Shown one piece after another: positions 3,617 through 48,374 of a DNA stretch of 49,886 nucleotides (its first letter is position 1; every line of letters begins with the position of its first letter). The DNA is from a virus. Lineage: Duplodnaviria; Caudoviricetes. The position numbers and the translations under genes are program-made. The notes beneath the pieces were generated by a model that saw only the letters and a list, made by a program, of their open reading frames with translations, searched no databases and was not told the DNA's origin. The DNA is taken from IMG/VR virus record IMGVR_UViG_3300020016_000008, positions 1-49,886 of that record. One strand, given 5' to 3'.

Positions 3617-4260
3617 GACTCCTGCACCGGCGGCGCTGGACGCGCGATGAAGAGATCGGGCTGGCGGCTGCCCTCCTCGATGCGGCGGCAGGCAATGTCG
3701 AAATATTTTGGCTCGATCTCGATCCCGATGAACTTACGCCCAAGCTTCACCGCTGCAACGCCTGTCGTGCCAGAGCCCATGAATGGGTCGAGGATCGTGC
3801 GGGCGTCAGGCAGAAGCGCGAGGCACCATTTCATTAAGTCCAAAGGCTTTTGTGTCGGGTGTTCCCGAACGTATGATCCGCCTGTTGGCGCCTCGAAACG
3901 TCGAGCGGGCGCGTCAAGATTTGTCCACGCCAATTCCATGTCGGCCTGCGTGGGTACTGAATTGGTTTTTGCCCAAGCCAACCAACAGCGGCTAGGTGGC
4001 AGCGGAAAGTAATTTCCTCCCCACAATATAACCAGACGGCCCGCTTTTATGACGCCCTCTAAGTCCGGAGCGGTCATGTCCCAGGCATTGCCGCCAGCAA
4101 GATGATTCCAATGGCCCGTATTTGCGCCGCCCTTCATTAAGGCGCCAATACCATAAGGCGGATCAGTCACCACAGCATCGACCTTGCCCAACGTCGGCAA
4201 GATGTCCCGGCAATCGCCCAGGTACAGGGTCGCGGGCCCGATCGTCTCGATGCGGCTCAT
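3607..4260 (-). CDS. DNA methyltransferase (beta class, N6A/N4C)
   Basis: VVTDPPY, HPTQKP and LDPFMGSGTTG motifs. Confidence 0.92.
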   Translation of the reverse strand: MSRIETIGPATLYLGDCRDILPTLGKVDAVVTDPPYGIGALMKGGANTGHWNHLAGGNAWDMTAPDLEGVIKAGRLVILWGGNYFPLPPSRCWLAWAKTNSVPTQADMELAWTNLDAPARRFEAPTGGSYVREHPTQKPLDLMKWCLALLPDARTILDPFMGSGTTGVAAVKLGRKFIGIEIEPKYFDIACRRIEEGSRQPDLFIARPAPPVQESWL

Positions 4261-4729: not shown

Positions 4730-4911
4730 GGCCGCAGCTCCCGCGGCTCGACCGGCTTGCACTCGCACAGCCAGGCACCCAAAAAACACCACACACCATG
4801 CGGCGTCTGCTCGAACGCGTCGGCGATGCACCATCCGAGGCGGCAATAGTCTTCCGCGCACTCGTGCGGTACATAGCGCGCGCATTGCGTGACGTGGCGC
4901 CAGGAGATCAT
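4726..4911 (-). CDS. hypothetical protein
   Basis: ATGA coupling at both ends. Confidence 0.6.
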   Translation of the reverse strand: MISWRHVTQCARYVPHECAEDYCRLGWCIADAFEQTPHGVWCFLGAWLCECKPVEPRELRP

Positions 4912-4921
4912 TCGGCGGCCT
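4883..4921. repeat. 39-bp direct repeat, copy 1
   Basis: CATTGCGTGACGTGGCGCCAGGAGATCATTCGGCGGCCT is identical at 6096-6134. Confidence 0.95.
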
Positions 4922-6098
4922 CGCGGTGGATGTCTGCGAACATGCCGGCGTCGGCGCCGATGCGCCGCTCGATCATCGCGGCATAGGTCGGGTTGAGTTC
5001 GATCAGGATGGCGTCGCGGCCCAACCGGTCGGCGACGAGGCCGGTGGTGCCGGCGCCGGCGAATGGGTCGAGGACGGTGCAGGGGACGGCAGCAGCGTTG
5101 CAGGAGCAGGATGGCGACCAGCCGGTTGTCTTGCGCGGCGCCACCAAAACAAGATGGTCAGCATCCCATTGTCCATTCCCACCGCGATCCATTGGTCCAG
5201 CAGCCTTGCCTTCTTTGAGGCATCCGGTAGCGCCGCCAATTCGTATCGGTTCGCCCTTTGCACTCACCCGCACCCACGGCGCCCCGCACTTGGCGCAGCA
5301 TCCCTTCTCGCTGGTGCCGGCCTTGATGCACGGCTCGATCAGCGCCGACGGGAAGGTCGCGAAGTGGGCCTCGCTGTAGGGCTGGGTGGCCACTTCCCAA
5401 ACGCTGCGCTTGTTGCGCGTCTGGCCAGTCACGCCAATCTTTGAAAGGCCAGCCTTCATATGCTGATCATTCACGGCATCTGGATTGCATCTGTGACCAC
5501 CACCACGATCTTGCCCGGCGCTGATTGCGGACTCCGCAATCGCATCCGCGTCGTAGTAGTACCGCTCGCTCTTGCTCAGCAGGAACAGGTACTCGTGCGC
5601 CTTGGTGCAGCGGTCGCGCACGCTCTCGGGCATCGGGTTCGATTTCGACCAGATGATGTCCTGGCGCAGGTACCAGCCGTCGGCCTGCAGCGCGAAGGCG
5701 ACGCGCCAGGGAATGCCGATGAGGTCTTTGGGCTTGAGGCCAATTCGACTTGTGCGCCCGCGGACTTTATCAGTTTCATAGCTTTCCCGCCCATCGGTAC
5801 GGCCATTATCAAATACCGATCCGCCGGCCGCACCGCTATGTACATAGCTGTCGCCAAGATTGAGCCAAAGCGTTCCGTCCTTGCGCAGGACGCGGCGGAG
5901 CTCTCGGAAGATCGCGACGGCGTTCTCGACATAGAGCTGATAGGTGGGCTCAAGGCCGAAGGCATCCTTCCCGATGGCGTAGTCTCTCAAGCCCCAATAT
6001 GGCGGCGAGGTCACGACGCAATGCACCGACTCGCTCGGCAGCGTGCGCAGTACCTCGCGGCAGTCGCCTTTGTGGACCGTAATCATTGACGCGTCCAT
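4908..6098 (-). CDS. DNA methyltransferase (beta class, SPPY, likely N4-cytosine) with a Cys-rich insert
   Basis: VTSPPYWGLRDY, HFATFP and VLDPFAGAGTTG; CAKC...CSC insert before motif I. Confidence 0.93.
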   Translation of the reverse strand: MDASMITVHKGDCREVLRTLPSESVHCVVTSPPYWGLRDYAIGKDAFGLEPTYQLYVENAVAIFRELRRVLRKDGTLWLNLGDSYVHSGAAGGSVFDNGRTDGRESYETDKVRGRTSRIGLKPKDLIGIPWRVAFALQADGWYLRQDIIWSKSNPMPESVRDRCTKAHEYLFLLSKSERYYYDADAIAESAISAGQDRGGGHRCNPDAVNDQHMKAGLSKIGVTGQTRNKRSVWEVATQPYSEAHFATFPSALIEPCIKAGTSEKGCCAKCGAPWVRVSAKGEPIRIGGATGCLKEGKAAGPMDRGGNGQWDADHLVLVAPRKTTGWSPSCSCNAAAVPCTVLDPFAGAGTTGLVADRLGRDAILIELNPTYAAMIERRIGADAGMFADIHREAAE

Positions 6099-6134
6099 TG
6101 CGTGACGTGGCGCCAGGAGATCATTCGGCGGCCT
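6090..6134. repeat. direct repeat, copy 2
   Basis: Shares 39 bp with 4883-4921 and 34 bp with 6571-6604. Confidence 0.95.
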
Positions 6135-6570: not shown

Positions 6571-6604
6571 CGCGTCCATTGCGTGACGTGGCGCCAGGAG
6601 ATCA
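6571..6604. repeat. direct repeat, copy 3
   Basis: CGCGTCCATTGCGTGACGTGGCGCCAGGAGATCA is identical to 6090-6123. Confidence 0.95.
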
Positions 6605-6784
6605 CTGCGGCAACTCCGCTCTCCACCGATGGCCGCAATGCGGGCATTCATAGGTAACGATGTCGCCACCCGGCCAACCGTCGCGCTGATCACCGACCTC
6701 ATGAGCATCAGCATGAACAACTGGCGTGCCCATTGACGGTACCCACGGCGTATTTTTTGAGCAGACGAATGGCATCTTGGTCAT
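6602..6784 (-). CDS. small zinc-ribbon-like protein
   Basis: C-terminal YECPHCGHRW. Confidence 0.6.
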   Translation of the reverse strand: MTKMPFVCSKNTPWVPSMGTPVVHADAHEVGDQRDGWPGGDIVTYECPHCGHRWRAELPQ

Positions 6785-8338: not shown

Positions 8339-8434
8339 GCGCGCGGCACCTCGCGATTGGGCATCAAAGCGCCTGTGGCCGGGCGCGCGCAGTCGCATAG
8401 CTTCTCTGGGCATCACGACACCCTTGGCGACCGC
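8339..8434 (-). ncRNA. TIGR-like satellite array (2 stem-loop units)
   Basis: Minus strand reads GCGGTCG-CCA-AGGGTGTCG-TGATGCCCA-GAGAAGCTA-TG-CGACTGC then GCGCCCGG-CCA-CAGGCGCTT-TGATGCCCA-ATCGCGAGG-TG-CCGCGCGC. Confidence 0.9.
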
Positions 8435-8446
8435 GATTGGCATTGG

Positions 8447-8833
8447 TCACGAATGCAGCAATTCGAGCTTGTCGCTGCCGCCTTTGGGCTTGGCCTTGCG
8501 CAGCGCGGCCTTGCCGAGATTGGTGTCGCCGAACGCGCCCAGCGCTTCGAGCATCGCCTCGTAATCGGCCGCGTCATCCGCTTCCAGCTCGGAGATGCGC
8601 TGTTCGATCTTGCGCTCGCTGCGATGCTTGGCAATGACCGTGCGCAGCGCTTCCATATTCACGCCGCTCTCGCGCGCTTCCTTCATGATGTTGCGGATCT
8701 GCCCGCGCGGACCTTTGCACGCGTCCATGTGCTCGACCTTGAGCTTGATCAGCCGGTCATCGGCTTTGTCAATTGCTTTCAGATACTTCTCAAGCTGCTC
8801 AAAACCGTTCGATCCTTCACGCTCTGGCGCCAT
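8447..8833 (-). CDS. GapR-like (DUF2312/UPF0335) nucleoid-associated protein
   Basis: L..Y...I......I..IMKEARESGVNMEALR.VI..R...Y..ML.ALG pattern. Confidence 0.7.
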   Translation of the reverse strand: MAPEREGSNGFEQLEKYLKAIDKADDRLIKLKVEHMDACKGPRGQIRNIMKEARESGVNMEALRTVIAKHRSERKIEQRISELEADDAADYEAMLEALGAFGDTNLGKAALRKAKPKGGSDKLELLHS

Positions 8834-9092: not shown

Positions 9093-9526
9093 CTGAAAAA
9101 TTCCCCGGTTTGTCAGGCTGGTGCCAAGAGCATTGAGCGCACATCCGCGCAGGATCAATAGCGAAGTCAAAAGGCCAACGGATATTTTGCAGTTCGCCGT
9201 TAGCGCTGCTGACGGTCAGAAAAAAAAGTTTACCCGGTTGCGGAATACCAAAAAAGTTTACGCCGGTGTTCGTATCGATACCGTATCGCTTCGCAATACA
9301 AGTATGGCGTTGTGCGCCGAGCAGCACCAAAAGTGTGGCGCGACTTGACAGCGCAATTGTTTTGTCAGTTTAACTAGCGATGAAATTGCCGAGGCGTCTA
9401 GACGCACCCTTATAATCTATAAGCACTCGGCAAACTCGACCACCACACGACCAATCCCGCCGAGGCTTATCGTCAACATGGGACCAATCCTCATGGTGGC
9501 TATTGCGACCGCATGCGACCGCCTGC
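9093..9526. promoter_or_regulatory. divergent control region
   Basis: AT-rich; TTGACA at 9345 inside the TGACA-N12-TGTCA inverted repeat; TATAAT at 9411; duplicated AAAAAAGTTTAC at about 9222 and 9250. Confidence 0.5.
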
Positions 9527-9574
9527 GCGCCCGGCCACTCCTTCGGTGATGCCCAGCCGGCAACTGCCGGGCGC
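9527..9574 (+). ncRNA. TIGR-like single unit in the operon leader
   Basis: GCGCCCGG-CCA-CTCCTTCGG-TGATGCCCA-GCCGGCAAC-TG-CCGGGCGC, preceded by two orphan TGCGACCGC half-stems. Confidence 0.9.
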
Positions 9575-9601: not shown

Positions 9602-10228
9602 ATGACACAAACCAGAACCACGCTGCACGATCTTGCGAAATTCGCCGCCGAAGTTTTGCAGCAAAATGGCAATGACCCCGAAAAAGCATTGCCAAAATTC
9701 GATGCCGCTTTGAAGAAACGCGACGATCTGCGCCATGCCGTGCTCTTCGATTATCTCCAGCGCTTACAGCCGGCGAAGCCGCGCACCCCTCGCGTGAAAA
9801 GCGTGCATGTCGACGAGCACCGTCGGCGCCGCCCCCGCAGCGACGAGGAACGCAAAGGGGAACTCATGTCGGCTGCACACCACGGCGAAGTGCTACGCTC
9901 TGTTTTTGAACATGAGGTCAATAATCGGCCGGTCGGGAAATTCCGTTGGGGCGAGCTGACTTTGGCGGTGCGGGAGAACGCGTACAACGCCGCGAGCTAT
10001 TTGCGCCTCGGCACCGAAGCTACTGCCAACGCGCTACTACTCGACAAGATTCATGGTCACGCCTCGGTCGACGATCACGAAAAGCTCGTTAACCAAGTAC
10101 TCAGCCCGAAACAATTGCAAGCATATCTCGACGAGGCGCGCCGCGAGGCGCCGTTGCGAATTGAAGAGGGAATGCACCGCTATGCCGCCAGCCTCGAAGT
10201 TAGCCAGCCGCAGGAGTTGATCCAATGA
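9602..10228 (+). CDS. hypothetical protein, translationally coupled to the Tas-like gene
   Basis: 208-aa helical ORF; ATGA overlap with 10225. Confidence 0.8.
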   Translation: MTQTRTTLHDLAKFAAEVLQQNGNDPEKALPKFDAALKKRDDLRHAVLFDYLQRLQPAKPRTPRVKSVHVDEHRRRRPRSDEERKGELMSAAHHGEVLRSVFEHEVNNRPVGKFRWGELTLAVRENAYNAASYLRLGTEATANALLLDKIHGHASVDDHEKLVNQVLSPKQLQAYLDEARREAPLRIEEGMHRYAASLEVSQPQELIQ

Positions 10229-11100
10229 GAGCGCCGGACTTAACCAGGATCGAAGTCGTTAATTTCATTCGCGCCGAGCACCGCCGGCGGCGCTTCGCAA
10301 TGAAGGTGCAACAGAAACTCGACCGTGCGCTTGAATCATTCGTGCGCCGCAACTGCACCGATTGGACTTTCGACGCTGATGAGAAACAGCGCAAGGCGTT
10401 CAATGAACAGACCGCGGCGATCATCAAAGCGGCGAGAGCTGGCGAAGGCGATCCGGTCATTGTCGAATTGATCCAAGCGACCGAGCGCGGCCGCGCGCCG
10501 TTTGATGCGATGCGCAAGGCGGCCGAGAAGAAAATGGCGGAACTCGCGGAGACATTGCCGGTCGCGGAATGGATACGGGACAAGGTACATGGCGCCGGAA
10601 TGCTCGGCATGGCGACGATCGTGGCAGAAGCCGGCGATCTGTCGAACTATTCAAATCCCGCGAAGCTATGGAGCCGATTGGGATACGCCCCGTTCGACGG
10701 GCACGCGGGATCGACGTGGAAGCGGGCCACATGGCGGTCGCGCGCGCTCACTGCGGAAGAATGGGTCGAGCACCCCTTCGCAGGGGAGCGTTACGCCCTC
10801 ATGTTCTCGATCGCCGATTCACTTTGGCGAGCGCAGTGGGTCTCTGCCAAGAAAGCCGGCGCCGAGGAAGGCCACGCGGATGGCGCGTATGGTGAAGTTT
10901 ACGCCGCCCGCCGTGCGCACACGTTCACCACCCATCCAGACTGGTCAAAAATGCACCGGCGGATGGACGCGTTGCGGGTCATGATGAAACAGTTTCTCGT
11001 CGATCTCTGGCAGCAGTGGCACCGCGAGCCTTCATCGGCGCCGGTGCCCAAACTCACGCCGAAACCTCGGCAGGGTCGAACTCGGAAACCCAAGACATGA
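10225..11100 (+). CDS. tasA: Nop-domain RNA-guided protein, TasA-like (no RuvC/HNH)
   Basis: Coiled coil followed by the IS110/Nop signature VHGAG..GMATIVAEAGDLSNY.NPAKLWSRLGYAP and C-terminal H...ALRVMMKQFLVDLW..W; no DEDD RuvC domain; directly followed by a dual-spacer array. Confidence 0.85.
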   Translation: MRAPDLTRIEVVNFIRAEHRRRRFAMKVQQKLDRALESFVRRNCTDWTFDADEKQRKAFNEQTAAIIKAARAGEGDPVIVELIQATERGRAPFDAMRKAAEKKMAELAETLPVAEWIRDKVHGAGMLGMATIVAEAGDLSNYSNPAKLWSRLGYAPFDGHAGSTWKRATWRSRALTAEEWVEHPFAGERYALMFSIADSLWRAQWVSAKKAGAEEGHADGAYGEVYAARRAHTFTTHPDWSKMHRRMDALRVMMKQFLVDLWQQWHREPSSAPVPKLTPKPRQGRTRKPKT

Positions 11101-11108
11101 ATCTAATT

Positions 11109-11641
11109 GCGGTCGCCAGTCGGCGCGTGAAGCCCAGGACAGCATTGCGACCGCCGAGCCCGGCCAGTTCAACACTGATGCCCATCGGTCGCGTGCCGGG
11201 CTCCCCTCTTCGAACTGCGGTCGCCACCGGCGCATTGATGCCCATCGAACCTGTGCGACCGCCCGCGCCCGGCCAAGCGGCACGTGATGCCCCTTCACGA
11301 GATGCCGGGCGCCCTCTTTCACGAACTGCGGTCGCCAGCGCAAATCTGATGCCCACTGTACTGGTGCGACCGCCGAGCCCGGCCACTTGTAGATTGATGC
11401 CCAGGGAGAGCGTGCCGGGCTCACCTATCCGAACTGCGGTCACCAGCACGTCAGTGATGCCCAGGGCCAAGCTGCGACCGCCTGCGCCCGGCCAGGTCAG
11501 GTTTGATGCCCACTCCACGGATGCCGGGCGCCCCTATCCGAACTGCGGTCGCCACTTGACCATTGATGCCCAACGATCAGATGCGACCGCCCTGCGCCCG
11601 GCCACTCCTTCGGTGATGCCCACTCCACGGATGCCGGGCGC
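11109..11641 (+). ncRNA. TIGR-like stem-loop array, 10 units with paired 9-nt spacers
   Basis: Units start at 11109, 11156, 11217, 11265, 11328, 11375, 11436, 11484, 11545 and 11594; each is stem-CCA-N9-TGATGCCCA-N9-TG-stem; stems alternate GCGGTCG/CGACCGC and G(A or C)GCCCGG/CCGGGC(T or G)C. Confidence 0.93.
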
Positions 11642-11668: not shown

Positions 11669-12451
11669 ATGCTAACCTTCACTCAAATCGAGGCACGCAA
11701 AGGCCGGCTCACCGGCTCGCGCATCGCGTGCCTCATGACGGCCGATGCGCCGGCAATCCTGCGTCTTTACCGCGAAATGATCGGCGAGGAGCAAGAGGAG
11801 GATCTGTCAAGGATCTGGCCGGTGCAGCTCGGATCGGCAACCGAGCAGCTCAATCTCGACTGGTACGAAATGAAAGGGAATCCATTGTCGCGGCGCGGCG
11901 AGGTCGTCATACATCCGCGTCATGATTGGGCAGCGGCAACGCTCGACGCCTGGGACGACACGCTTGCCTGCCCAGTCGAAGCGAAACATTGCGGCGGCCG
12001 TGAGCCGTTCGAGGTCGTCGTCGACCGATACCAGCCGCAGCTACAGTGGGAATGTGAGGTTACAGGCGCAACGCAATGCGTTTTCTCCGTCATCATGGGC
12101 GCAAACGAGCCGGTCGTCGAATACATCGACCGTCACCCCGGATATGCCGGCGAGATGGTCAGGCGCGGCCAGCAGTTCATGCATTGCGTTGCAGCTCGGA
12201 CACCGCCGGTGGTGCTCCCTGCCGTCCCGCCGCCGGTCGATGCTTCCAAGATTTACGATTTCACTGGGGACAACCGATGGGCCAATTCCGCGGCGACCTG
12301 GCTTGCGACGAAAGCTTACGCTCACGAGTGCATCGAGGCTGAAAAATATCTCAAATCTATCGTGCCCGAGGACGCCAAGAAAGTCACCGGTTACGGCGTT
12401 CAGATAACCCGCGATCGCGCCCGTCGCTTATCACTGAGGGAGATGACATGA
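11669..12451 (+). CDS. YqaJ/lambda-exonuclease-like protein
   Basis: R...LTGS, G...E, ATLDAW..VEAK and Y.PQLQW motifs. Confidence 0.88.
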   Translation: MLTFTQIEARKGRLTGSRIACLMTADAPAILRLYREMIGEEQEEDLSRIWPVQLGSATEQLNLDWYEMKGNPLSRRGEVVIHPRHDWAAATLDAWDDTLACPVEAKHCGGREPFEVVVDRYQPQLQWECEVTGATQCVFSVIMGANEPVVEYIDRHPGYAGEMVRRGQQFMHCVAARTPPVVLPAVPPPVDASKIYDFTGDNRWANSAATWLATKAYAHECIEAEKYLKSIVPEDAKKVTGYGVQITRDRARRLSLREMT

Positions 12452-13194
12452 CCGTCCCTGCCAAAGCCGACATCATGAACAGCGTGATTACCAAGGGCGA
12501 TCTATCGGAACTGACTCCCGAGGAGCGGGTGCGTTATTACGGAGAAGTTTGCGACAGCGTCGGCCTCAATCCGCTGACCAAGCCGTTCGAATACATCACG
12601 TTGAACAATAAGCTGACATTGTATGCGTTGCGCAATTGCACTGATCAACTACGCACCCTTCACGGCGTGTCGGTCGTGGAGCTCGCCGAAAGCGAGCGAG
12701 AGGGAATCTTCATTGTCACCGCCAAGGTGACCAATCGGCAAGGCCGAACCGACATGGCAAAGGGCGCCGTGGCTATTGCGAATCTCAAGGGTGATGTGCT
12801 CGCCAACGCGCTTATGAAATGCGAGACGAAAGCCAAGCGCCGCGCCACACTATCGATTTGCGGACTAGGTTTCGTGCTCGATGAGACCGAGATCGCCGAT
12901 ATTCCGATCACGCATCGGACCCCTCCGCCCCCCGCGCCAAACGTGATGCTGTCCGCGCACGACCCCGAAACCGGCGAAGTTTTGCCGCATGCGCCGAACG
13001 CTGCGGCGGAACAGGTCGCCCCGCCCGACAATCAGAGACCCACGGGCGGGGCGAGTCTGTCTTTCGAGGACATGGCGCGCGAGGCGGCTATGCGTGGCGA
13101 AGCTGCATTCAAGGCATTTTACAAAAGCCGCAGCGCGAAGGAACGGGAAGCGCTCAATGCGATGGGTGATGAGCTGCGAGGCCTGATGACATGA
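12448..13194 (+). CDS. single-strand annealing recombinase (RecT/Bet-like)
   Basis: GLNPL..., MKCETKAKRRA motif; coupled to the exonuclease gene. Confidence 0.75.
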   Translation: MTVPAKADIMNSVITKGDLSELTPEERVRYYGEVCDSVGLNPLTKPFEYITLNNKLTLYALRNCTDQLRTLHGVSVVELAESEREGIFIVTAKVTNRQGRTDMAKGAVAIANLKGDVLANALMKCETKAKRRATLSICGLGFVLDETEIADIPITHRTPPPPAPNVMLSAHDPETGEVLPHAPNAAAEQVAPPDNQRPTGGASLSFEDMAREAAMRGEAAFKAFYKSRSAKEREALNAMGDELRGLMT

Positions 13195-13238
13195 GAGCGG
13201 CCAGAGAGCTGCACGAGAGAGTTGAGCCCATGAGTTTG

Positions 13239-13334
13239 GCGGTCGCCAGCATGTCGATGATGCCCAGGGGACTGATGCGACCGCCTGCGCCCGGCCGCTT
13301 GTTGGCTGATGCCTAGTGCGCGTGTGCCGGGCGC
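13239..13334 (+). ncRNA. TIGR-like satellite array (2 units)
   Basis: GCGGTCG-CCA-GCATGTCGA-TGATGCCCA-GGGGACTGA-TG-CGACCGC then GCGCCCGG-CCG-CTTGTTGGC-TGATGCCTA-GTGCGCGTG-TG-CCGGGCGC. Confidence 0.9.
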
Positions 13335-13384: not shown

Positions 13385-13972
13385 ATGGCACTGAAAGAAT
13401 TCGAAAACGCAGATGAACTTATGGCGTTTTACCGTGACCTACGCGCGCGCACGCGGTCCTGGGCACCGAGGCCAGCGCCGCCGCCAGCACCCGAGCCCGA
13501 GCCTGATGAGCCAGAACCGGAACCACTATCACCGCCGCCGCTGCTGCCGTTGACGCCACTCCGACGGATCGTCCTAGCGGTCGCGCACGAGTTCGGCATG
13601 CCGGTGGGAGTGATCTGTTCGCGCTCCTGCGTTCAGTCGGTCGTTGTGCCCAGGCACGTCGTTGTCTTGTTGGCCAAGGAGTTAACCAACTCAACACATT
13701 CTCAGATTGGCAATGCCATTGGTCATCGCGACCACAGTTGTGTTGGCAATTCGGTCGCCTCCTTGAAAGGCAAGATGATCAACAACCCCGCTCTTGCGCT
13801 GAGAGTGGAGCGCTTGCGGCACAGGCTTCTGGAACTGGGACAACTGGAGGAACGTGACAATGGATGCGACCAAGATTCTGAGCGAGCGCGAGATCATGCA
13901 GCGTGTGGACAGGACGCTGCTGCATCTGGACCGGTTGTTGAATGCCAAGGAGATGGACCGAGAGTCGTATGA
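13385..13972 (+). CDS. DnaA C-terminal (domain IV) HTH-like protein
   Basis: VVVPRHV...LAKELT..T..QIG..IGHRDHS.V motif. Confidence 0.8.
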   Translation: MALKEFENADELMAFYRDLRARTRSWAPRPAPPPAPEPEPDEPEPEPLSPPPLLPLTPLRRIVLAVAHEFGMPVGVICSRSCVQSVVVPRHVVVLLAKELTNSTHSQIGNAIGHRDHSCVGNSVASLKGKMINNPALALRVERLRHRLLELGQLEERDNGCDQDSERARDHAACGQDAAASGPVVECQGDGPRVV

Positions 13973-14048
13973 TGACGCCGTGCGTCATCTCGCGTTGTGG
14001 GAAGAGAGCGCCATGCTGGCCGCTCGCGCCGCAGGGGTGCAGCCATGA
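13854..14048 (+). CDS. hypothetical protein
   Basis: GGAGG RBS; ATGA-coupled to the next gene. Confidence 0.55.
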   Translation: MTMDATKILSEREIMQRVDRTLLHLDRLLNAKEMDRESYDDAVRHLALWEESAMLAARAAGVQP

Positions 14049-19302: not shown

Positions 19303-20241
19303 TCATTTGATAATGACCTTGGCGAAGTACGGCGGGAGAGTTTGGTTCTGGTCGAACTCGATCCGCACCAGCTGCTGTCGTTCGACGGGGGCCAAGGTCT
19401 TCTGAAACTCCTTCGGCAGTGCCCCGGCAATGTTGCTGATCTTTGCGATGGTGCCGGCCAGGGCCCCATTGACCACACCGCCGCCGGCATCGACCTTGAC
19501 CTTGTCGCCGACCTTGAGCTGGTAGAGCCGGTCAATCGGAAAGAAGGCGAGGACGTAGCGATGCTCGCCGACCAGTTCGATCAGCGGCTCGCCCTCGCGC
19601 ACTACCGCCCCCGGGCCGACCTTGATCACACTGACCACGCCGTCGATGGGCGAGCGCATGTTGCCGGCGTCGAATGAGTTCTGCAGGTCAAGCAGCGCCA
19701 TGTCGGTCTGTCGCGAGGCTTCAACCACCATCGTGATCTGTTCGCTAAGTGCCTGCTTCTCGGCCTGTAATGCGGCGAGGTCCTGCTTACCCCGGAACAT
19801 CTGGTCGACCGCCGTCGTGCGCGTGATGGTCGGCGTGTTGCCCTTCTCAGCCGAGGCCCCAAGCTGGGCCGCACCTTCGGTCGCGACCTTCTCGCGCAGC
19901 TCAGCCGCGGTCAGCAATGAATTTTGCATCTGAAGCCGGGTGCTGTTCTCCGCCAATTTGGCGGTCAGTGATGCGGAACTGATCGTCAGTCGCGCGCTCA
20001 CTTCTGTGATTCGGGTCGATGTGACGCGAGCAACAACGTCCCCCCGTTTGACCGACTGTCCTTCTTCCACCAGCACCTGCTTAACAGTGACGGTGTACTC
20101 GGGCGCGACCGCAGCAGGATCGCCGACCACCAGCCCCTCGCTGTGAATGTAGACCCAGCCGCCGGTTATGGAACTGCCGATCCATGTAAAGAGGCTAAGC
20201 AAGCCGCTGATGTAGAACCACCGGACGAATGTACGCTTCAT
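19303..20241 (-). CDS. HlyD-family membrane fusion protein
   Basis: N-terminal TM; lipoyl halves V.EGQ.V..GD.VA and RSPIDGVV...V..G.VV..GEPL around a coiled coil. Confidence 0.88.
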   Translation of the reverse strand: MKRTFVRWFYISGLLSLFTWIGSSITGGWVYIHSEGLVVGDPAAVAPEYTVTVKQVLVEEGQSVKRGDVVARVTSTRITEVSARLTISSASLTAKLAENSTRLQMQNSLLTAAELREKVATEGAAQLGASAEKGNTPTITRTTAVDQMFRGKQDLAALQAEKQALSEQITMVVEASRQTDMALLDLQNSFDAGNMRSPIDGVVSVIKVGPGAVVREGEPLIELVGEHRYVLAFFPIDRLYQLKVGDKVKVDAGGGVVNGALAGTIAKISNIAGALPKEFQKTLAPVERQQLVRIEFDQNQTLPPYFAKVIIK

Positions 20242-21440
20242 GTCAGCCGCCAGCGCTGGGCCTTCGGGACATAGTCGTCATGGCGCGTGATCGAGAATGC
20301 CAGCTCGGCCGCCAGCGCGAACACCCGCAGCGGGCGCAGCACGAACGTCTGCTCGATGAGGTAGAGCGGCACGTAGGGGACCAGTCGCAGCGGCAAGCCG
20401 ACCAATAGAACGATGATCCCGTCGAGAACCGCCAGACCGAGCATCACGGCGCCCAAAATCACGAAGGCCGTGGCACCGACCTTGGTCCATATCCACCACA
20501 CATAGACCGGGAATACCAACTGCAGCACGACGGAGAACACCAGCACGTCGAGGCTCGTGACGAGATTGCTACCCGTCAGGTTGCGCGCGATCGGGTTAAC
20601 CATCCCGCCGAACTTGAACAGCCAGATCGTGATGATCGAGGCGTCCCAGCGCAACCGTTGGAGCGTAAGCCCGGTGATATCCTCGGGCACGTTGGTCGAA
20701 GCGTAGGCATTGCCGGCATAGCGCAGCTTCCAACCGGCGCGCCGCAACTTCATAGCCAAGGCTGCATCTTCCGCAACCTCGACATCCAGCCCGCCGACCG
20801 CGGTGAGGGCTTCGCGTCGGAACACACCGCCGGCCCCCGACACATTTGGCAAAATGCCGAAGGCATCCGAGCACATGCGCCCAGCCGTGAACTGAACCGC
20901 ATACTCGATGGCTTGCAGCCGCGTGATGAGCGAAACATGCGCGTTGCGGACCCGCAGGTTGAGGCCGACGCCGGCCACGTCCGGGTCCAGAAAATACGGT
21001 TTCACGGTCGCGATCGCCTCGGGCGCCAGCGTGGTGTCGGCATCGCAAATCACCACCAGATCGCCGGTGCAGTGCGCCAGCGCCTTGTTCACCGAAGTCG
21101 GCTTGCCCTGACGCTCCTCGTTGCGCAGAACGATTACGCCCAGCGACGGCAGCACCAGCCTGGTGTCGTCCTCGGAACCGTCATCGACCGCAACGATCTC
21201 TTCGACCCCGGCTGCCCGCAAAGCGCCAACACAGGCAGCGACTGTCTTTTCCTCGTTGTAGCAAGAGACCACCGCGCTGACCTGGAAGCTGGTCTGCCCC
21301 TGCGGATAGCGGCCGGGCGCAATCGCGACCACAAAGGTCGACAGCAAGTAGCGCGGCACGTCCATGATGATCATGAGCCAGAACAGCAGCACCAGCTCGC
21401 CGGAGCCCAACGCTAAGAGCATATCGAGCGGGGCGCTCAT
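20238..21440 (-). CDS. processive GT2 polysaccharide synthase (PgaC/HAS/NodC-like)
   Basis: YNEE, DDGS, DADT, SGAGG.FR, AED and QRLRW (D,D,D,QxxRW) with flanking TM helices. Confidence 0.92.
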   Translation of the reverse strand: MSAPLDMLLALGSGELVLLFWLMIIMDVPRYLLSTFVVAIAPGRYPQGQTSFQVSAVVSCYNEEKTVAACVGALRAAGVEEIVAVDDGSEDDTRLVLPSLGVIVLRNEERQGKPTSVNKALAHCTGDLVVICDADTTLAPEAIATVKPYFLDPDVAGVGLNLRVRNAHVSLITRLQAIEYAVQFTAGRMCSDAFGILPNVSGAGGVFRREALTAVGGLDVEVAEDAALAMKLRRAGWKLRYAGNAYASTNVPEDITGLTLQRLRWDASIITIWLFKFGGMVNPIARNLTGSNLVTSLDVLVFSVVLQLVFPVYVWWIWTKVGATAFVILGAVMLGLAVLDGIIVLLVGLPLRLVPYVPLYLIEQTFVLRPLRVFALAAELAFSITRHDDYVPKAQRWRLT

Positions 21441-28490: not shown

Positions 28491-30520
28491 ACCGCCTCCA
28501 GGTCATAGCCGATCGGGATCTTCAGGTCGGTGACCTGCACGTCGTAATCGCTGGAGAACTCGCGAGTCATGCTCTTGAGCTTGAAGGTCGCGCGGGTCTC
28601 TACTTGCTTGAGAGCATTTCTGATTGCTTCGGATCGTGCCTGCACCGCCGCCTGCAATTGCTGCTGCTCCTCGTCGGTGATGAACGGTTTGAAAATCGGT
28701 GCGGCGTTCCGGAATCCCGAATGAGTAAAGACATAATCGGCCTGCACGGACGCGGGGTTCTCGACCACCAGCGGCTGATCGATGACATCCTCGGCCCGCA
28801 ACACGGAGGTGAAGTCGAGGCCGTCATCATTCGGATTGGAACTGGGCGGCTGGTATCCAACCGAAGTATCGAGCAGGACGGTCCTTCCGGTGAATTGCTG
28901 ATAATCGGCGCCGGTATAGTCAATGCTGCAATAGGTCGGAGTCCCGTCCGCGGCTACGACCGAACCGCCGCGACCGATAGCGCAGCCAATACGGGCCTCG
29001 CATTGTAGGCGCCCATCCGATCCATTCAACGCAATCGAATAGCCGATGATCTTGCCCAGCGCCTCGCCGACGCGCGGCTCGATCAGAGACGCATTCTTGC
29101 GCAACGTGATCTCGGGCATGCGCGCGAGCTTGGGGGCGAAGGCGATCTCCACCACCCGCGCCCGCTTCAGCAAGTGCGCCCGCGCCAGCGCGATCAGATG
29201 TTCTAGGCTTCGATTACCACGCTCGGTCGCAATGTAAGAGCGCCGCCGCAGATCGCCGATCGGCACCTCGGCGCCGAGCGGTTCGCTCAGGTTGACAGAT
29301 TTGACGTCATCGATCCGCAGCGCCTCACCATCCTCTGGATCGGTCAGAACATGCTGCACGTCAGCCATCAGCGAGAACGACACGCGCTCCGTGCATGGCC
29401 GGTTGGCTGAATAGCCCGCCGTCAGGCTGACCGTCGTGAAATGCAACGGCAGCGCGGCGGCAACCGCCGTATATTGGCGGCTCAGCGATGTGCTCGAGCC
29501 TGATTCCCCCGGTATGCCGAACACCGCCTGCACCTTGCCAAGCGTCACACTGCTCCGGTCGCTGGTCACCATCCGCGGCCAGGACAGATAAGATGGCGCG
29601 ACAGTGTAACTCTCCGTCTCTGATATCGTTGTGTGCGTGCTCGACGGACCAAACCATGACGTGTCGGGAAAGATGACCGTAATGTCGGAACCCGTGGTCT
29701 TGCTCTTGACCGACAGATCATAGGGCGTCGATGCGGATGCTTCGGCGACCACCCAGCCATCGCCGATCGTGGCTCCGGCCTTTGGCCAACCGTCGGACGT
29801 CAAGCTATACGACGTGATATAGTTGCGGCCACCGTCTGGCCAATTCCGGCACAGATAGTCGCTCAGGTCGACTCGTCCCTGCGCCTGTTGCGTCCAGGCA
29901 TACTCAGCGACAATATCGACCCGCGACAGCGGCCCGCTGGTGAGTGTGAGGCTGAGGCCGTCATATAAAACCTTGCCGTCCTCGCTGACACCGTCGAACT
30001 CGACCAGCCCATCCTCGCCGTCGATCTCGTCCGAGACCGTCAGGACATGCGTCTCGCGGTCGTAGTGCCAGATCTTGCTGTAGCCTTCCAAGACCACCTC
30101 CGGATCGGTGCGCCGCGCCTTGTCGATCACCACCTCGTCGTAATAGGGCAGCACCCGCAGCGTCTGCGCCAGCGCTTCCTTCTGAGCCACCAGGTCGATC
30201 GGCCGCGCCACGAATTCCAGCGTCACCAGTTCCTCGAATATGCTGGTCGGCACCCCAACAAGCCGGCCACGAAACTTGACCAGGTCGGGCCCGCAGTCGA
30301 GCGCGAACCAGCACCAGATTTTGCGGCCGGGACCGAGCAAACCGATCGCATTGCCAGCCTCGTTGCGTGGGCGCCGAACCGCGAGGGTGAGGGAGGCAGG
30401 GTCGCCCTCGTCCTGCTTGAGCGTGAACGAAAATACGCTCTCGTCCCAACGCATATGCTCGGGCAAGAACGCCGTCTCGCCCGGATCGATCCAGGCGAAA
30501 TAGGGCATCCCCGCTGGCAT
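28487..30520 (-). CDS. tail tip/hub protein
   Basis: Large ORF two genes after the tape measure gene. Confidence 0.75.
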   Translation of the reverse strand: MPAGMPYFAWIDPGETAFLPEHMRWDESVFSFTLKQDEGDPASLTLAVRRPRNEAGNAIGLLGPGRKIWCWFALDCGPDLVKFRGRLVGVPTSIFEELVTLEFVARPIDLVAQKEALAQTLRVLPYYDEVVIDKARRTDPEVVLEGYSKIWHYDRETHVLTVSDEIDGEDGLVEFDGVSEDGKVLYDGLSLTLTSGPLSRVDIVAEYAWTQQAQGRVDLSDYLCRNWPDGGRNYITSYSLTSDGWPKAGATIGDGWVVAEASASTPYDLSVKSKTTGSDITVIFPDTSWFGPSSTHTTISETESYTVAPSYLSWPRMVTSDRSSVTLGKVQAVFGIPGESGSSTSLSRQYTAVAAALPLHFTTVSLTAGYSANRPCTERVSFSLMADVQHVLTDPEDGEALRIDDVKSVNLSEPLGAEVPIGDLRRRSYIATERGNRSLEHLIALARAHLLKRARVVEIAFAPKLARMPEITLRKNASLIEPRVGEALGKIIGYSIALNGSDGRLQCEARIGCAIGRGGSVVAADGTPTYCSIDYTGADYQQFTGRTVLLDTSVGYQPPSSNPNDDGLDFTSVLRAEDVIDQPLVVENPASVQADYVFTHSGFRNAAPIFKPFITDEEQQQLQAAVQARSEAIRNALKQVETRATFKLKSMTREFSSDYDVQVTDLKIPIGYDLEAV

Positions 30521-30909
30521 CAGACGATCTCTCGCTGCTCGGCCTCGAGCATCCACGCTATTTCTGCCGACCATTCATCGCGGGACGTATTCCAGGCCGT
30601 GACCTTCGCGAGAATGGTCAGCACATCGCCGGTCGTATTGGCGGCGCCCAGGCCGGGAATGCAAGTGATGGTGATGTCCTGCCCCGGCCACACATCCGTG
30701 AGCTCCGGCGCCTCATGGTCAGTACACGTAATCGAAACTTTGTATTGTCGAAACTGCGCCACCGAAATATCTGCGAGTTCGCCGCGGCAGTCGCGCGCCA
30801 CGTTCTTGGCCTGGTCGATCGGCGCCAGCGTCATCGTGATCCCGCGCACTGCAAATTGCGAGAAGTCAACGCCATCGATTGCGAGCAGCGTATAGGCAGG
30901 CGTTGTCAT
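30520..30909 (-). CDS. distal-tail-like protein
   Basis: First gene after the tape measure gene; 129 aa. Confidence 0.7.
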   Translation of the reverse strand: MTTPAYTLLAIDGVDFSQFAVRGITMTLAPIDQAKNVARDCRGELADISVAQFRQYKVSITCTDHEAPELTDVWPGQDITITCIPGLGAANTTGDVLTILAKVTAWNTSRDEWSAEIAWMLEAEQREIV

Positions 30910-30955
30910 TCATACGTCCTTGACAGGCCGATGGAGGCGAGCGCACGGTTCCGAT

Positions 30956-31050
30956 GCGGTCGCCAGCCTCGTGATGAAACCCACTGCACCGATGCGGCTG
31001 CAGAGCCCGGCCAGTGCATACCTGATGCCCATCACGGCGGTGCCGGGCTC
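30956..31050 (+). ncRNA. TIGR-like satellite array (2 units), antisense to the late operon
   Basis: GCGGTCG-CCA-GCCTCGTGA-TGAAACCCA-CTGCACCGA-TG-CGGCTGC then GAGCCCGG-CCA-GTGCATACC-TGATGCCCA-TCACGGCGG-TG-CCGGGCTC; TTGACA at 30920. Confidence 0.9.
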
Positions 31051-31057
31051 CCCTTCT

Positions 31058-33304
31058 TCAACTGTATCTGCTCGGCTTCCTGCCGCCGCTTCGGACCTGC
31101 GCCATCGCTGCGGCCTTGCGCAGTTCATCGACAACGGCGGACGACGCACGCAGGCCGGTTATCTCGGGCAGGCCTGGAAAGTTGATGGTGACGTTGTTCA
31201 TGGTGCCACCGCCTGCGAAGGCGGGGATCGAGAGCGTCGGCGCCACCAGGCCGCCCAAGGCAAACCCGCGCATGCCGTCGAGGATGTCGCGCAGGTTGCC
31301 GCCCGAGTGGCGCAAGGCCTCGAGGAAGGCGAGGACGCCCGGCTGGGCCACCGCCCGTGCCGGCGTGATGTACTCACCACGTGAAACCCAAGCGAGATTG
31401 CTGTCGCTCGTGCCGGTACCGCGACCGCCGAGCAATCCGCCACCCGCGAAGCTACCGCCAGTGGCGCCCGCTGGCGCCGCGGCTGCCCCGCCGCCGAAGC
31501 CCAGCTTCGCGACCATCGCGTTCCACATATCGACGATCCACTGCCAGGCACTCGCGACCGGCGTCGTCACGAACGCCGTAATGGCAGCCATGGCTTGATC
31601 GGCCGCACTCTGCAGCGATGCGACGACACTGGTGAATGTATCGACGATCCATTGCCAGGCGCTGCTGACCGGCGTGGTGACCCAGGCATCGAGCAAAGCC
31701 TTGGCCGTGCTGAAGATCGCAGAGAGGACCTCCGGCAAACGCATCCAACCTTGAACGATCTGCCCCAGCGTCGTCATGAGCTGCGAGCCGAGCATGTTGA
31801 ACGACTCGACGACCTGCGCGGCGAACTCCACGACACGCGCGGTGATGTTGTCGATCGCCGTCGTGGCGCTCGCGGCCGCGCCCGAGAAGATCGTCGATGC
31901 CCACGCCTGCTTGAGCCGCTCCCACGCGCTCGCAAGCCGCTGGCTGCTCTCGTTCATCTGCTCGAACGTCGTCGCCGTCTGCGGGCTGATCAGCACGCCG
32001 GCCGCTTTTATCTTCTCGAACAGATTGTCGATCTTCGTCACTTCAACGCCGTAACGACGCACGCGGTCGACGTCGGTCTCAGAGAAGCCAAGCGCCGCGC
32101 CGATTTTGAACGCATCCTCCTTCGGCAAGTTCGCGATGATCTTGAGCAGCGACTTGCCGACGTCGCCGCCGGCATTGGCGACATCCTGCAGGACGACCTT
32201 GATGGCGGTGAGCTTGGTCTCGGCCGTCACCAGACTGTCGAACGCAAACAGTGTTGGCGGCGATGGCGTGGCTCCCAGCGCCGCGATCTGCGACATCAGC
32301 ACCACGATGTTTGTCAGATTGTTCGCGGCAGCCTTGGCGCTGTCCTCGCGCGCCTTCGCCAATCTCTTCTCGGCGTCCGCAAGATCGTCGGTCTTTTTTG
32401 CCACTTCGAGCAGACGCTCGACCTCTTGCACGCGACGCTCGGCGTCGCCAGAGAATGCGCTCTTCGCAATCTGCACCTGGAGCAACGCTTTCTCGGCCTC
32501 GAGCAGTTCGATGGTCGCACCGCGAATCTTGTTGGCCGATGCCTCGAACGCCTCGCCGGGCTTGAAGCCCTCCAGCTCCTTGGCGATGTTGGCAATCACG
32601 CTACGGAATTTCTCCGCCGAGATGCCGATTTGTCCGAACGCCTGCTGCCCGACCTGCAGATCGGTGAACGACTGGCCGATATCGCGCGTCTTCGTCGCCA
32701 GGTGATCGAGCGTATCCGACAGCCGCGCATCGTCGAACGCGATCCGCTCGAGCGCCGCGGCAAGGATGCCGAGACCGGCGACCGCGGCGCCGATCGCGCC
32801 GACGAACACGCTGCCCAGACTGAGCGCGAACGTGCCGACAGCAGCCGCCGCTGTGACTGCCTGCACGCCCAGGGCTGCCGTTGCCGTACCGGCCGAGGCG
32901 ACGCTCGCCGCCGCCGAGCCGACCGCGGCGCCGGTGCGCACCACGTTGAGCGCAAGGTTCGCATACGAGGTTGACGACTTCTCCGCCGCGTCGCCGGTCT
33001 TGGCGATGCCCTCGGCCGCCTTGGCGCTTTCCTCCGCGGCCTTGCCGAGCCCTTCGCCGGCTGCGGTGGCGGCCTCGCCGACTTGCTCCAGCGGAGGCGC
33101 CGTCTTCGCGGATGCTTGCGTCAGATCCCCGAACGCCGCGACCAGGCCGTCGACGGCCTTCTGAGTTTGCGGATCGATCTGCGCTTTCGATGCAGCATCC
33201 TCGATCTGCGCGAATGCCGACGACGCAGCCTTGGCCAGCGCCTCGAGCTGCTTGCGGATGTCGTCGCCACCCTCGATGCTGATCCTCTGACTTATCGTCG
33301 CCAT
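31058..33304 (-). CDS. tape measure protein
   Basis: Ala-rich helical protein, WQWIVD repeats, C-terminal FA.GG..G.GTGTSDS...S.GEY. Confidence 0.92.
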   Translation of the reverse strand: MATISQRISIEGGDDIRKQLEALAKAASSAFAQIEDAASKAQIDPQTQKAVDGLVAAFGDLTQASAKTAPPLEQVGEAATAAGEGLGKAAEESAKAAEGIAKTGDAAEKSSTSYANLALNVVRTGAAVGSAAASVASAGTATAALGVQAVTAAAAVGTFALSLGSVFVGAIGAAVAGLGILAAALERIAFDDARLSDTLDHLATKTRDIGQSFTDLQVGQQAFGQIGISAEKFRSVIANIAKELEGFKPGEAFEASANKIRGATIELLEAEKALLQVQIAKSAFSGDAERRVQEVERLLEVAKKTDDLADAEKRLAKAREDSAKAAANNLTNIVVLMSQIAALGATPSPPTLFAFDSLVTAETKLTAIKVVLQDVANAGGDVGKSLLKIIANLPKEDAFKIGAALGFSETDVDRVRRYGVEVTKIDNLFEKIKAAGVLISPQTATTFEQMNESSQRLASAWERLKQAWASTIFSGAAASATTAIDNITARVVEFAAQVVESFNMLGSQLMTTLGQIVQGWMRLPEVLSAIFSTAKALLDAWVTTPVSSAWQWIVDTFTSVVASLQSAADQAMAAITAFVTTPVASAWQWIVDMWNAMVAKLGFGGGAAAAPAGATGGSFAGGGLLGGRGTGTSDSNLAWVSRGEYITPARAVAQPGVLAFLEALRHSGGNLRDILDGMRGFALGGLVAPTLSIPAFAGGGTMNNVTINFPGLPEITGLRASSAVVDELRKAAAMAQVRSGGRKPSRYS

Positions 33305-33844: not shown

Positions 33845-33973
33845 CCGCCGCCCCGATGGCACGAAAAGTCAAATATTTGGCGCAATGCAGCAAGTCCTCC
33901 GCCAAAAGATATATTGCCAGGTCATTGCGGCACCGTTAGTGTTCCTGACGGTTGTCATCGAGAAGGAAGAACT

Positions 33974-48234: not shown

Positions 48235-48374
48235 CTTTGGCCAGGAAAATCAAATAATTGGCGCAAAGCAGCAACTCCCTGGCCGAAAGATATATGGCCG
48301 GATCATTCCGGTTTCGTTAGTTTCCATAACGGTCTCGTTGAGGCCGCTATCACGCAACTGGAGAACTTCCGCCC

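Follow-up and report, generated by a model that had tools for sequence, protein, structure and literature searches.

A temperate phage carries, antisense within its tail operon and some 20 kb from its only tas gene, a two-unit guide cassette of the stem-loop TIGR-TasA type whose first guide matches exactly the commonest allele of the adjoining, likely tail gene in related phages and differs at five positions from the phage's own copy. We consider it probable, at roughly 60%, that this is a stand-alone antisense cassette, likely self-transcribed, whose guides are loaded in trans on the distant TasA and silence the tail gene of kin but not that of the carrier.

The window analysed here is a whole virus record of 49,886 bases in which genes of a temperate tailed phage can be recognised (terminase, portal, major head, tail tube, tape measure, endolysin and integrase). 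No cultured relative was found for this phage; we infer an alphaproteobacterial host because the sole prokaryote-genome match of its tail gene lies in an alphaproteobacterial assembly. Elsewhere in the window, a 29-nt repeat present six times at 1940-2195, directly past a primase/helicase-like gene, is likely the replication origin, and a 45-nt repeat occurs three times (4877-4921, 6090-6134 and 6571-6615) around a methyltransferase gene (4908-6098). The late region holds two 96-nt AT-rich intergenic elements, 77% identical and 14 kb apart (33857-33952 and 48238-48333), that are perhaps promoters or a small RNA, and between the lysis genes and the integrase, HlyD-like and family-2 glycosyltransferase genes (19303-21440; common to G018 and G052) likely form a surface-conversion module.

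The cassette lies in a 148-nt segment (30910..31057, + strand) antisense to the tail operon, between the stop of the tape measure protein gene (31058..33304, - strand; PHROG tape measure, E 3e-12) and the start of the next gene, a conserved 129-aa reading frame (30520..30909, - strand). We take the segment to be an insertion, because these two genes abut with a gap of at most 1 nt in 71 of 81 related loci; the TIGR cassette itself recurs in just one of the 81, a near-identical phage in a second record, and is identical there. Two intact units follow one another on the + strand, unit 1 with an X-type stem (30955..31002; unit 30963) and unit 2 with a Y-type stem (31003..31050; unit 31011). Each comprises an 8-bp stem enclosing box C (CCA), a 9-nt spacer, a 9-nt loop repeat, a second 9-nt spacer and box D (TG). 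In unit 1 these fall at 30963-30965 (box C), 30966-30974 (spacer A), 30975-30983 (loop), 30984-30992 (spacer B) and 30993-30994 (box D), and in unit 2 the spacers are at 31014-31022 (A) and 31032-31040 (B). The stem of unit 1 fits an RNA of the + strand, because its pairing is preserved through two G-U pairs, which only that RNA could form. As read from the bases alone, a CUU lies at 31053-31055, 3 nt past the second stem, with none evident at the first. The folding energy of the module is not unusual (z -0.92). The spacers are split 9+9 rather than contiguous between CRISPR direct repeats, and the search of the window gave no Rfam match.

A scan with the unit motif found 17 units at five sites in the window genome, compared with a mean of 0.07 and a maximum of 1 per genome in 100 Markov simulations. 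Besides the remote module, these comprise a main array of ten units arranged as five X+Y pairs (11108..11641, + strand), a single Y unit upstream of the gene preceding tas (9527..9574, + strand), an X+Y module after the gene at 12448-13194 (13238..13334, + strand) and another after the gene ending at 8447 (8339..8435, - strand). Box C (CCA) and box D (UG) flank the spacers in both remote units and, with minor variants, in all 17. Across the units, 95.4% of stem cells are paired, a value set against 64% in shuffles (0 of 500 as high) and 30-47% in slid controls, in an alignment whose rows are interrelated and divide between two stem types. A covariance model trained on the same 17 units, which match it by construction, ranks them at the top of the window genome at 30.5-59.6 bits, and its scan found no eighteenth unit, the next match scoring 25.5 bits; unit 1, with its variant loop, scores lowest of the 17. 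That next match is a hairpin at 13014-13056, inside the gene at 12448-13194, and is too short for a unit. Unit 11602 joins spacer A of unit 9535 to spacer B of unit 11492, as if recombined at the loop repeat. The first-pass annotation had reported the two intact units between tail genes, their antisense orientation and a dispersed set of 17 units at five sites, all of which we find, and its distance of 20 kb from tas measures 19,866 nt. Its label of distal tail gene for the 129-aa frame is right as to position after the tape measure; the remaining basis consists of weak tail-family matches, and a search of solved structures gave no match of note, so that the product is here called a likely tail protein.

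The only tas match in the contig is a gene for a 291-aa Nop-domain protein (10225..11100, + strand), in keeping with the earlier proposal that one protein serves all five sites, by what would be loading in trans. Its predicted fold, computed from a 92-sequence alignment, is all helical with a pLDDT of 90.3, and the top Foldseek matches are TasR and TasH. Structural comparison (VIA) gave Z 14.3 for TasH (rmsd 3.5 over 199 aligned residues), Z 13.8 for TasR and Z 11.6 for an IS110 recombinase, and a profile match to TasR has an E of 1.2e-4. Residues 10-271 of the model align to residues 66-283 of TasH and 111-299 of TasR; because the match begins after the nuclease domains of those proteins, the model identifies the product as a nuclease-free TasA. 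A DEDD/RuvC recombinase domain is likewise absent from the N-terminus of the model, the alignment to ISCro4 starting at its residue 124. The Tas fold and the unit anatomy, as set out in the text available of PMC12045711, make the locus a stem-loop TIGR-TasA system. The tas gene adjoins a gene for a YqaJ/RecE exonuclease, of which a search found no relatives. A 208-aa gene of no known family (9602-10228) overlaps the start of tas and is a possible partner.

Ahead of the remote units stands a candidate promoter (30920..30949, + strand), composed of TTGACA at 30920-30925, an 18-nt gap and CACGGT at 30944-30949, that ends 5 nt before the stem and has a predicted start near it. By an ad hoc weighted score, applied post hoc, this element exceeds 99.8% of random positions, and with the same score two other remote pairs, in G050 and G051, exceed 99.4%; the comparison of remote with near sites reached P=0.053 only. 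A stock promoter and terminator scan reported no site at the module, and the -10 element is poor. Because an antisense cassette needs a promoter of its own, we think it likely, with moderate support, that the module carries one. Of the earlier suggestion to this effect, the TTGACA preceding the units thus holds up together with its high ad hoc score, and the stock scan speaks against it.

We next consider what unit 1 recognises. Following the cut geometry in PMC12045711, from which we derived the rule, a target was read by appending the reverse complement of spacer B to spacer A. Placed on the phage's own genes, the resulting 18-mer encodes residues 61-67 (TCTDHEA) of the adjoining 129-aa gene, where the own allele (30710..30727, - strand) differs from the guide at five positions, all of them synonymous third positions of codons 61-67. 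Unit 1 is the only one of the 17 guides with a placement on an own gene that changes no amino acid, and none of 60 shuffled 18-mers had one. An exact scan of 2.9 million viral contigs returned 28 records, and in all 28 the match falls at codons 61-67 of the homologous gene in related phages, with the two spacers reading opposite strands of a single 18-bp site; the swapped spacer geometry gave no such match for unit 1.

An independent set of 80 loci, collected by protein search and containing 56 distinct sequences, has a majority sequence equal to the unit 1 guide. Twenty-three loci match exactly, 19 have one mismatch, 10 have two, 25 have three, two have four and one has five, so that the own allele ties for worst against this set. 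Its mismatches lie at positions 1, 4 and 7 of spacer B and at positions 6 and 9 of spacer A, and that at position 4 falls on a seed position by our reading of the published rule. Judged by these alignments, it is clear that the guide came from a kin-type allele. Recoding of the own site for escape is only suggested: five of six synonymous positions differ inside the site as against 36 of 103 outside (P=0.022), but similarity of the own gene to its nearest kin is only about 82%, 56 of the 351 overlapping 18-nt windows of the gene differ at five or more positions, and the own allele may be simply divergent. Among 45 related records searched, one carries tas, an absence that counts weakly in records that are mostly fragments; G033 is a complete relative with an exact unit 1 site and without tas.

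For unit 2, no credible target was found. Its 18-bp form matches one viral and nine metagenome sequences, spread over five unrelated contexts (four being a single HNH gene cluster of a dissimilar phage), and we read these as chance, as we do the single match of its 17-bp overlap form, in an unrelated portal gene. In the related phage DNA examined there is no site with two or fewer mismatches to unit 2. A site in the phage itself (29407-29424, four mismatches) was set aside, relatives differing there from the guide at seven or more positions, and a likeness of spacer A to TCIP codons of the adjoining gene was also read as chance, the required peptide occurring in none of 120 homologues. The other 15 guides of the window have no target in 2.4 Mb of related phage DNA, which leaves one of 17 with a target found.

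Scans of related TasA phages for the protein and the unit motif yielded 236 distinct guides, in counts that omit two near-duplicate records (G001 and G049) and one fetched through its match to unit 2 (G045). Units in these phages are scattered between genes, with X+Y modules of about 109 nt, and 4 of the 13 tas-bearing records have sites at a distance of over 10 kb from tas. In 118 of the 236 guides, spacer A and spacer B end in bases complementary to each other, compared with 24% expected; because of this excess, the sequences suggest that some guides read 17 bp, giving a mix of 17-bp and 18-bp targets. With both geometries allowed, nine of the 236 guides have credible matches in the related phage DNA examined, and wrong-geometry controls gave two, one of them with a nearby own match inside an array. 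Five of the nine matched guides have a homologue of the target in their own genome, always 171-640 nt from the guide and with 3-12 mismatches (one was mapped just approximately); the other four have none. Their targets are the tail gene discussed above, tas itself, the genes of two exonucleases and a small gene carried by the phage of the window. The DNA searched was enriched for homologues of neighbouring genes, and two of the five adjacency cases come from the DNA so enriched.

Two of these five cases are as follows. Unit 24591 of G052 has an exact 17-bp match in the window (approximately 13872-13888), in a small gene near 13861-14048, and lies 219 nt from its own mismatched homologue of that gene. 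Unit 15344 of G047 matches tas of other TIGR phages and lies 171 nt from the same site in its own tas, which has five mismatches. Placements with no amino-acid change within 2.5 kb were found for 3 of 236 guides and 2 of 2360 controls, and no synonymous match lay next to the remote sites of G050, G051 or G058. We conclude from these comparisons that guide-target adjacency is real and is demonstrated for a minority of guides. The first-pass annotation had presented the placement of guides beside genes whose homologues they target as a general pattern; for unit 1, with its 28 of 28 exact matches, this holds, and as a rule, at one guide in 17 here and 9 of 236 in the clade, it was overstated. Two further observations were made in these genomes. 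Unit 22442 of G052, if a one-base gap is allowed, comes close to matching the flank of one of the window's TIGR units (near 9520), possibly a case of array-against-array targeting, and in another TasA phage, L159, an HNH homing-endonuclease-like gene is inserted after the exonuclease gene (12772-13293).

The junction that holds the TIGR cassette is occupied in five relatives by three different inserts of 127-148 nt (L028/L031, L064/L067 and L033), antisense, within the 130-150 nt that precede position 4001 and ending in a hairpin. These inserts are runs of 11-13 GGY/NN pentamers, the form of VIPR guides, which are pentameric with a 1-nt skip (bioRxiv 10.64898/2026.04.26.720920 and 10.64898/2026.10.15.759431). 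We decoded them with the published one-base skip, in contigs that are short fragments. In 30 of 80 loci the L033 guide then agrees with the 5' part of the same tail gene at all 22 positions, as against six mismatches to its own copy and one to that of the window; for the L064 guide, 32 loci show 1-2 mismatches over 24 positions, its own copy eight and the window's three. A skip of 1 gives 0 of 22 mismatches for L033 and 1 of 24 for L064, as against five or more for other skips and shuffles, the exception being an identical cassette in a sister record. The L028 guide, with two pentamers trimmed, is directed at the final part of the tape measure gene, with 2 mismatches over 22 positions at 39 loci and six to its own allele. 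The unit 1 site, in turn, is exact in L028, L031, L064 and L067 and has one mismatch in L033, so that on paper the targeting between the window's phage and both L033 and L064 appears reciprocal. In L033, amino-acid changes affect 3 of 11 residues inside the guide's site compared with 5 of 111 outside (P=0.024), which points to immunity by amino-acid change, as a wobble-skipping code would require; L028 shares two of these changes although its own guide points elsewhere.

In the reading we favour, the two units of the cassette would be transcribed on their own and processed into stem-loop guides, and these would be loaded in trans on the nuclease-free TasA encoded 20 kb away. TasA with unit 1 would then bind the 18-bp site in a relative's tail gene and block transcription of the tail operon in co-infecting or superinfecting phages, and the own allele would be spared through its five mismatches. 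Transcription, processing, loading in trans and repression are proposed by analogy to other stem-loop TasA proteins; TasA is reported to repress transcription (bioRxiv 10.64898/2026.09.09.750476, in the part available). Because, in a mosaic population, a guide recombined away from its immune allele would attack its new carrier genome, guides may, we propose, persist beside the gene they target. The finding is limited by its single resolved guide in seventeen, and silencing is the role to which these sequence relations point.

An alternative that we hold to be unlikely is nuclease-free RNA-guided homing, in which bound TasA would stall or bend the DNA and the phage's exonuclease and neighbouring recombination genes would copy the immune allele together with the cassette into a relative, so that the cassette would propagate much as a free-standing homing endonuclease gene does. 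The geometry resembles that of intronless homing (PMC2988022), with an insert about 250 nt from the target site at a junction that is empty in most kin, and both the exonuclease gene beside tas and the presence of four different cassettes at one junction would suit such a process. Yet this Tas is without a nuclease domain, the TIGR cassette was found in a single near-identical phage among the 81 related loci, and no conversion tract was demonstrated.

Adjacency could instead be a by-product of how guides are written, with spacers copied from nearby DNA (the own ancestral allele or that of a recombining partner), the own site then drifting or escaping and the targeting of kin being incidental. 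A guide equal to the population consensus, and so maybe to the ancestral state, would be expected under this scheme, all five mappable targets lie within 640 nt, and spacer shuffling is visible in unit 11602. We nevertheless regard it as quite unlikely: five synonymous changes exceed what escape should need, and the VIPR-type cassettes, which use a different code, show the same adjacency, which argues for a shared selective cause rather than one writing mechanism.

That the units are a silent relic, moved here once and now neither expressed nor loaded, seems decidedly unlikely. The weak -10 element would fit decay, and so would three features of unit 1, namely its variant loop, its two G-U pairs and its last place among the 17 by model score; against this, no box, stem or spacer length is disrupted, the changes in the stem preserve pairing in + strand RNA alone, the guide still equals the commonest allele exactly and the cassette is identical in the second phage record. 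Highly improbable, finally, is that each X+Y pair is one two-lobed RNA bridging two DNA sites, like an IS110 bridge RNA, rather than two guides: stem types alternate in 163 of 167 adjacent units with an X-to-Y spacing of 48-52 nt, remote sites often hold exactly one pair and the Tas fold also matches IS110 recombinases, but TasA has no recombinase domain, sites with a single X or a single Y exist, published stem-loop TasA hairpins are processed separately (PMC12045711, in the text available) and both stem types have ordinary gene targets.

Taken with the silencing reading, the inserts at this junction raise a wider and tentative possibility, that the site is a battleground at which two unrelated systems, TIGR-TasA and VIPR, independently park cassettes beside immune alleles, each directed at the copies carried by the other. 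Immunity would take a form set by the code, with silent third-position changes against a contiguous TIGR guide and amino-acid changes against a wobble-skipping VIPR guide, and the units of guide and allele would act as selfish drive elements, free of any nuclease, by which the phage population is split. Such convergence would suggest a general rule for phage guide RNAs, to adjoin an allele that is immune to you. Unit 1 supplies an exact, abundant and unambiguous natural target together with a natural non-target allele, making the question of TIGR targets directly testable, and searches may be guided by the observations that guides can sit far from tas and that the target is often a homologue of the neighbouring gene.

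The available text of two earlier reports (Faure et al. 2025, PMC12045711; Xu et al. 2026, bioRxiv 10.64898/2026.09.09.750476) describes natural TIGR targets as largely unknown and the role of nuclease-free TasA as an open question, and that of a third TIGR paper (bioRxiv 2026.08.11.744272) does not contain the term "natural target". We found no paper with a natural TIGR target beside its guide, a locus that supplementary tables might list, and none with TIGR and VIPR cassettes at one site or addressing each other's alleles. The stem-loop TIGR-TasA systems in those two reports share with ours the CCA/UG boxes, the two 9-nt spacers within a stem, the nuclease-free Nop-domain Tas, flexible sub-array positions around tas and carriage by phages. 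Unlike those described there, the present system has a cassette lying 20 kb away from tas (the tree loci of Xu et al. were taken with flanks of up to 10 kb), a strict pairing of two stem types and a natural target beside its guide.

The logic of a guide joined to an immune allele has already been published for virus-borne mini-CRISPR arrays (Medvedeva et al. 2019, PMC6858448, as far as its accessible text goes), in which one or two guides apart from the effector are aimed near the array in close relatives and the own locus is mutated against self-targeting; those arrays use host Cas and contiguous spacers, whereas here a split, PAM-free guide would be served by a nuclease-free Tas that the phage itself encodes. 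Free-standing homing endonucleases of T4, known for intronless homing and marker exclusion, are likewise inserted between conserved genes and aimed at relatives' neighbouring gene hundreds of bases away (PMC2988022, in the part seen); the present cassette differs in having no nuclease and in placing its specificity in RNA, and homing is for it a candidate reading only. VIPR and orphan vrRNAs resemble it as phage-borne, RNA-guided silencers of competitors with stand-alone guides whose self-match is lower than the match to rivals, by the sections available of the two VIPR reports cited above. They differ in protein and in code, and here VIPR-type and TIGR guides share a junction in sister phages and address each other's alleles.
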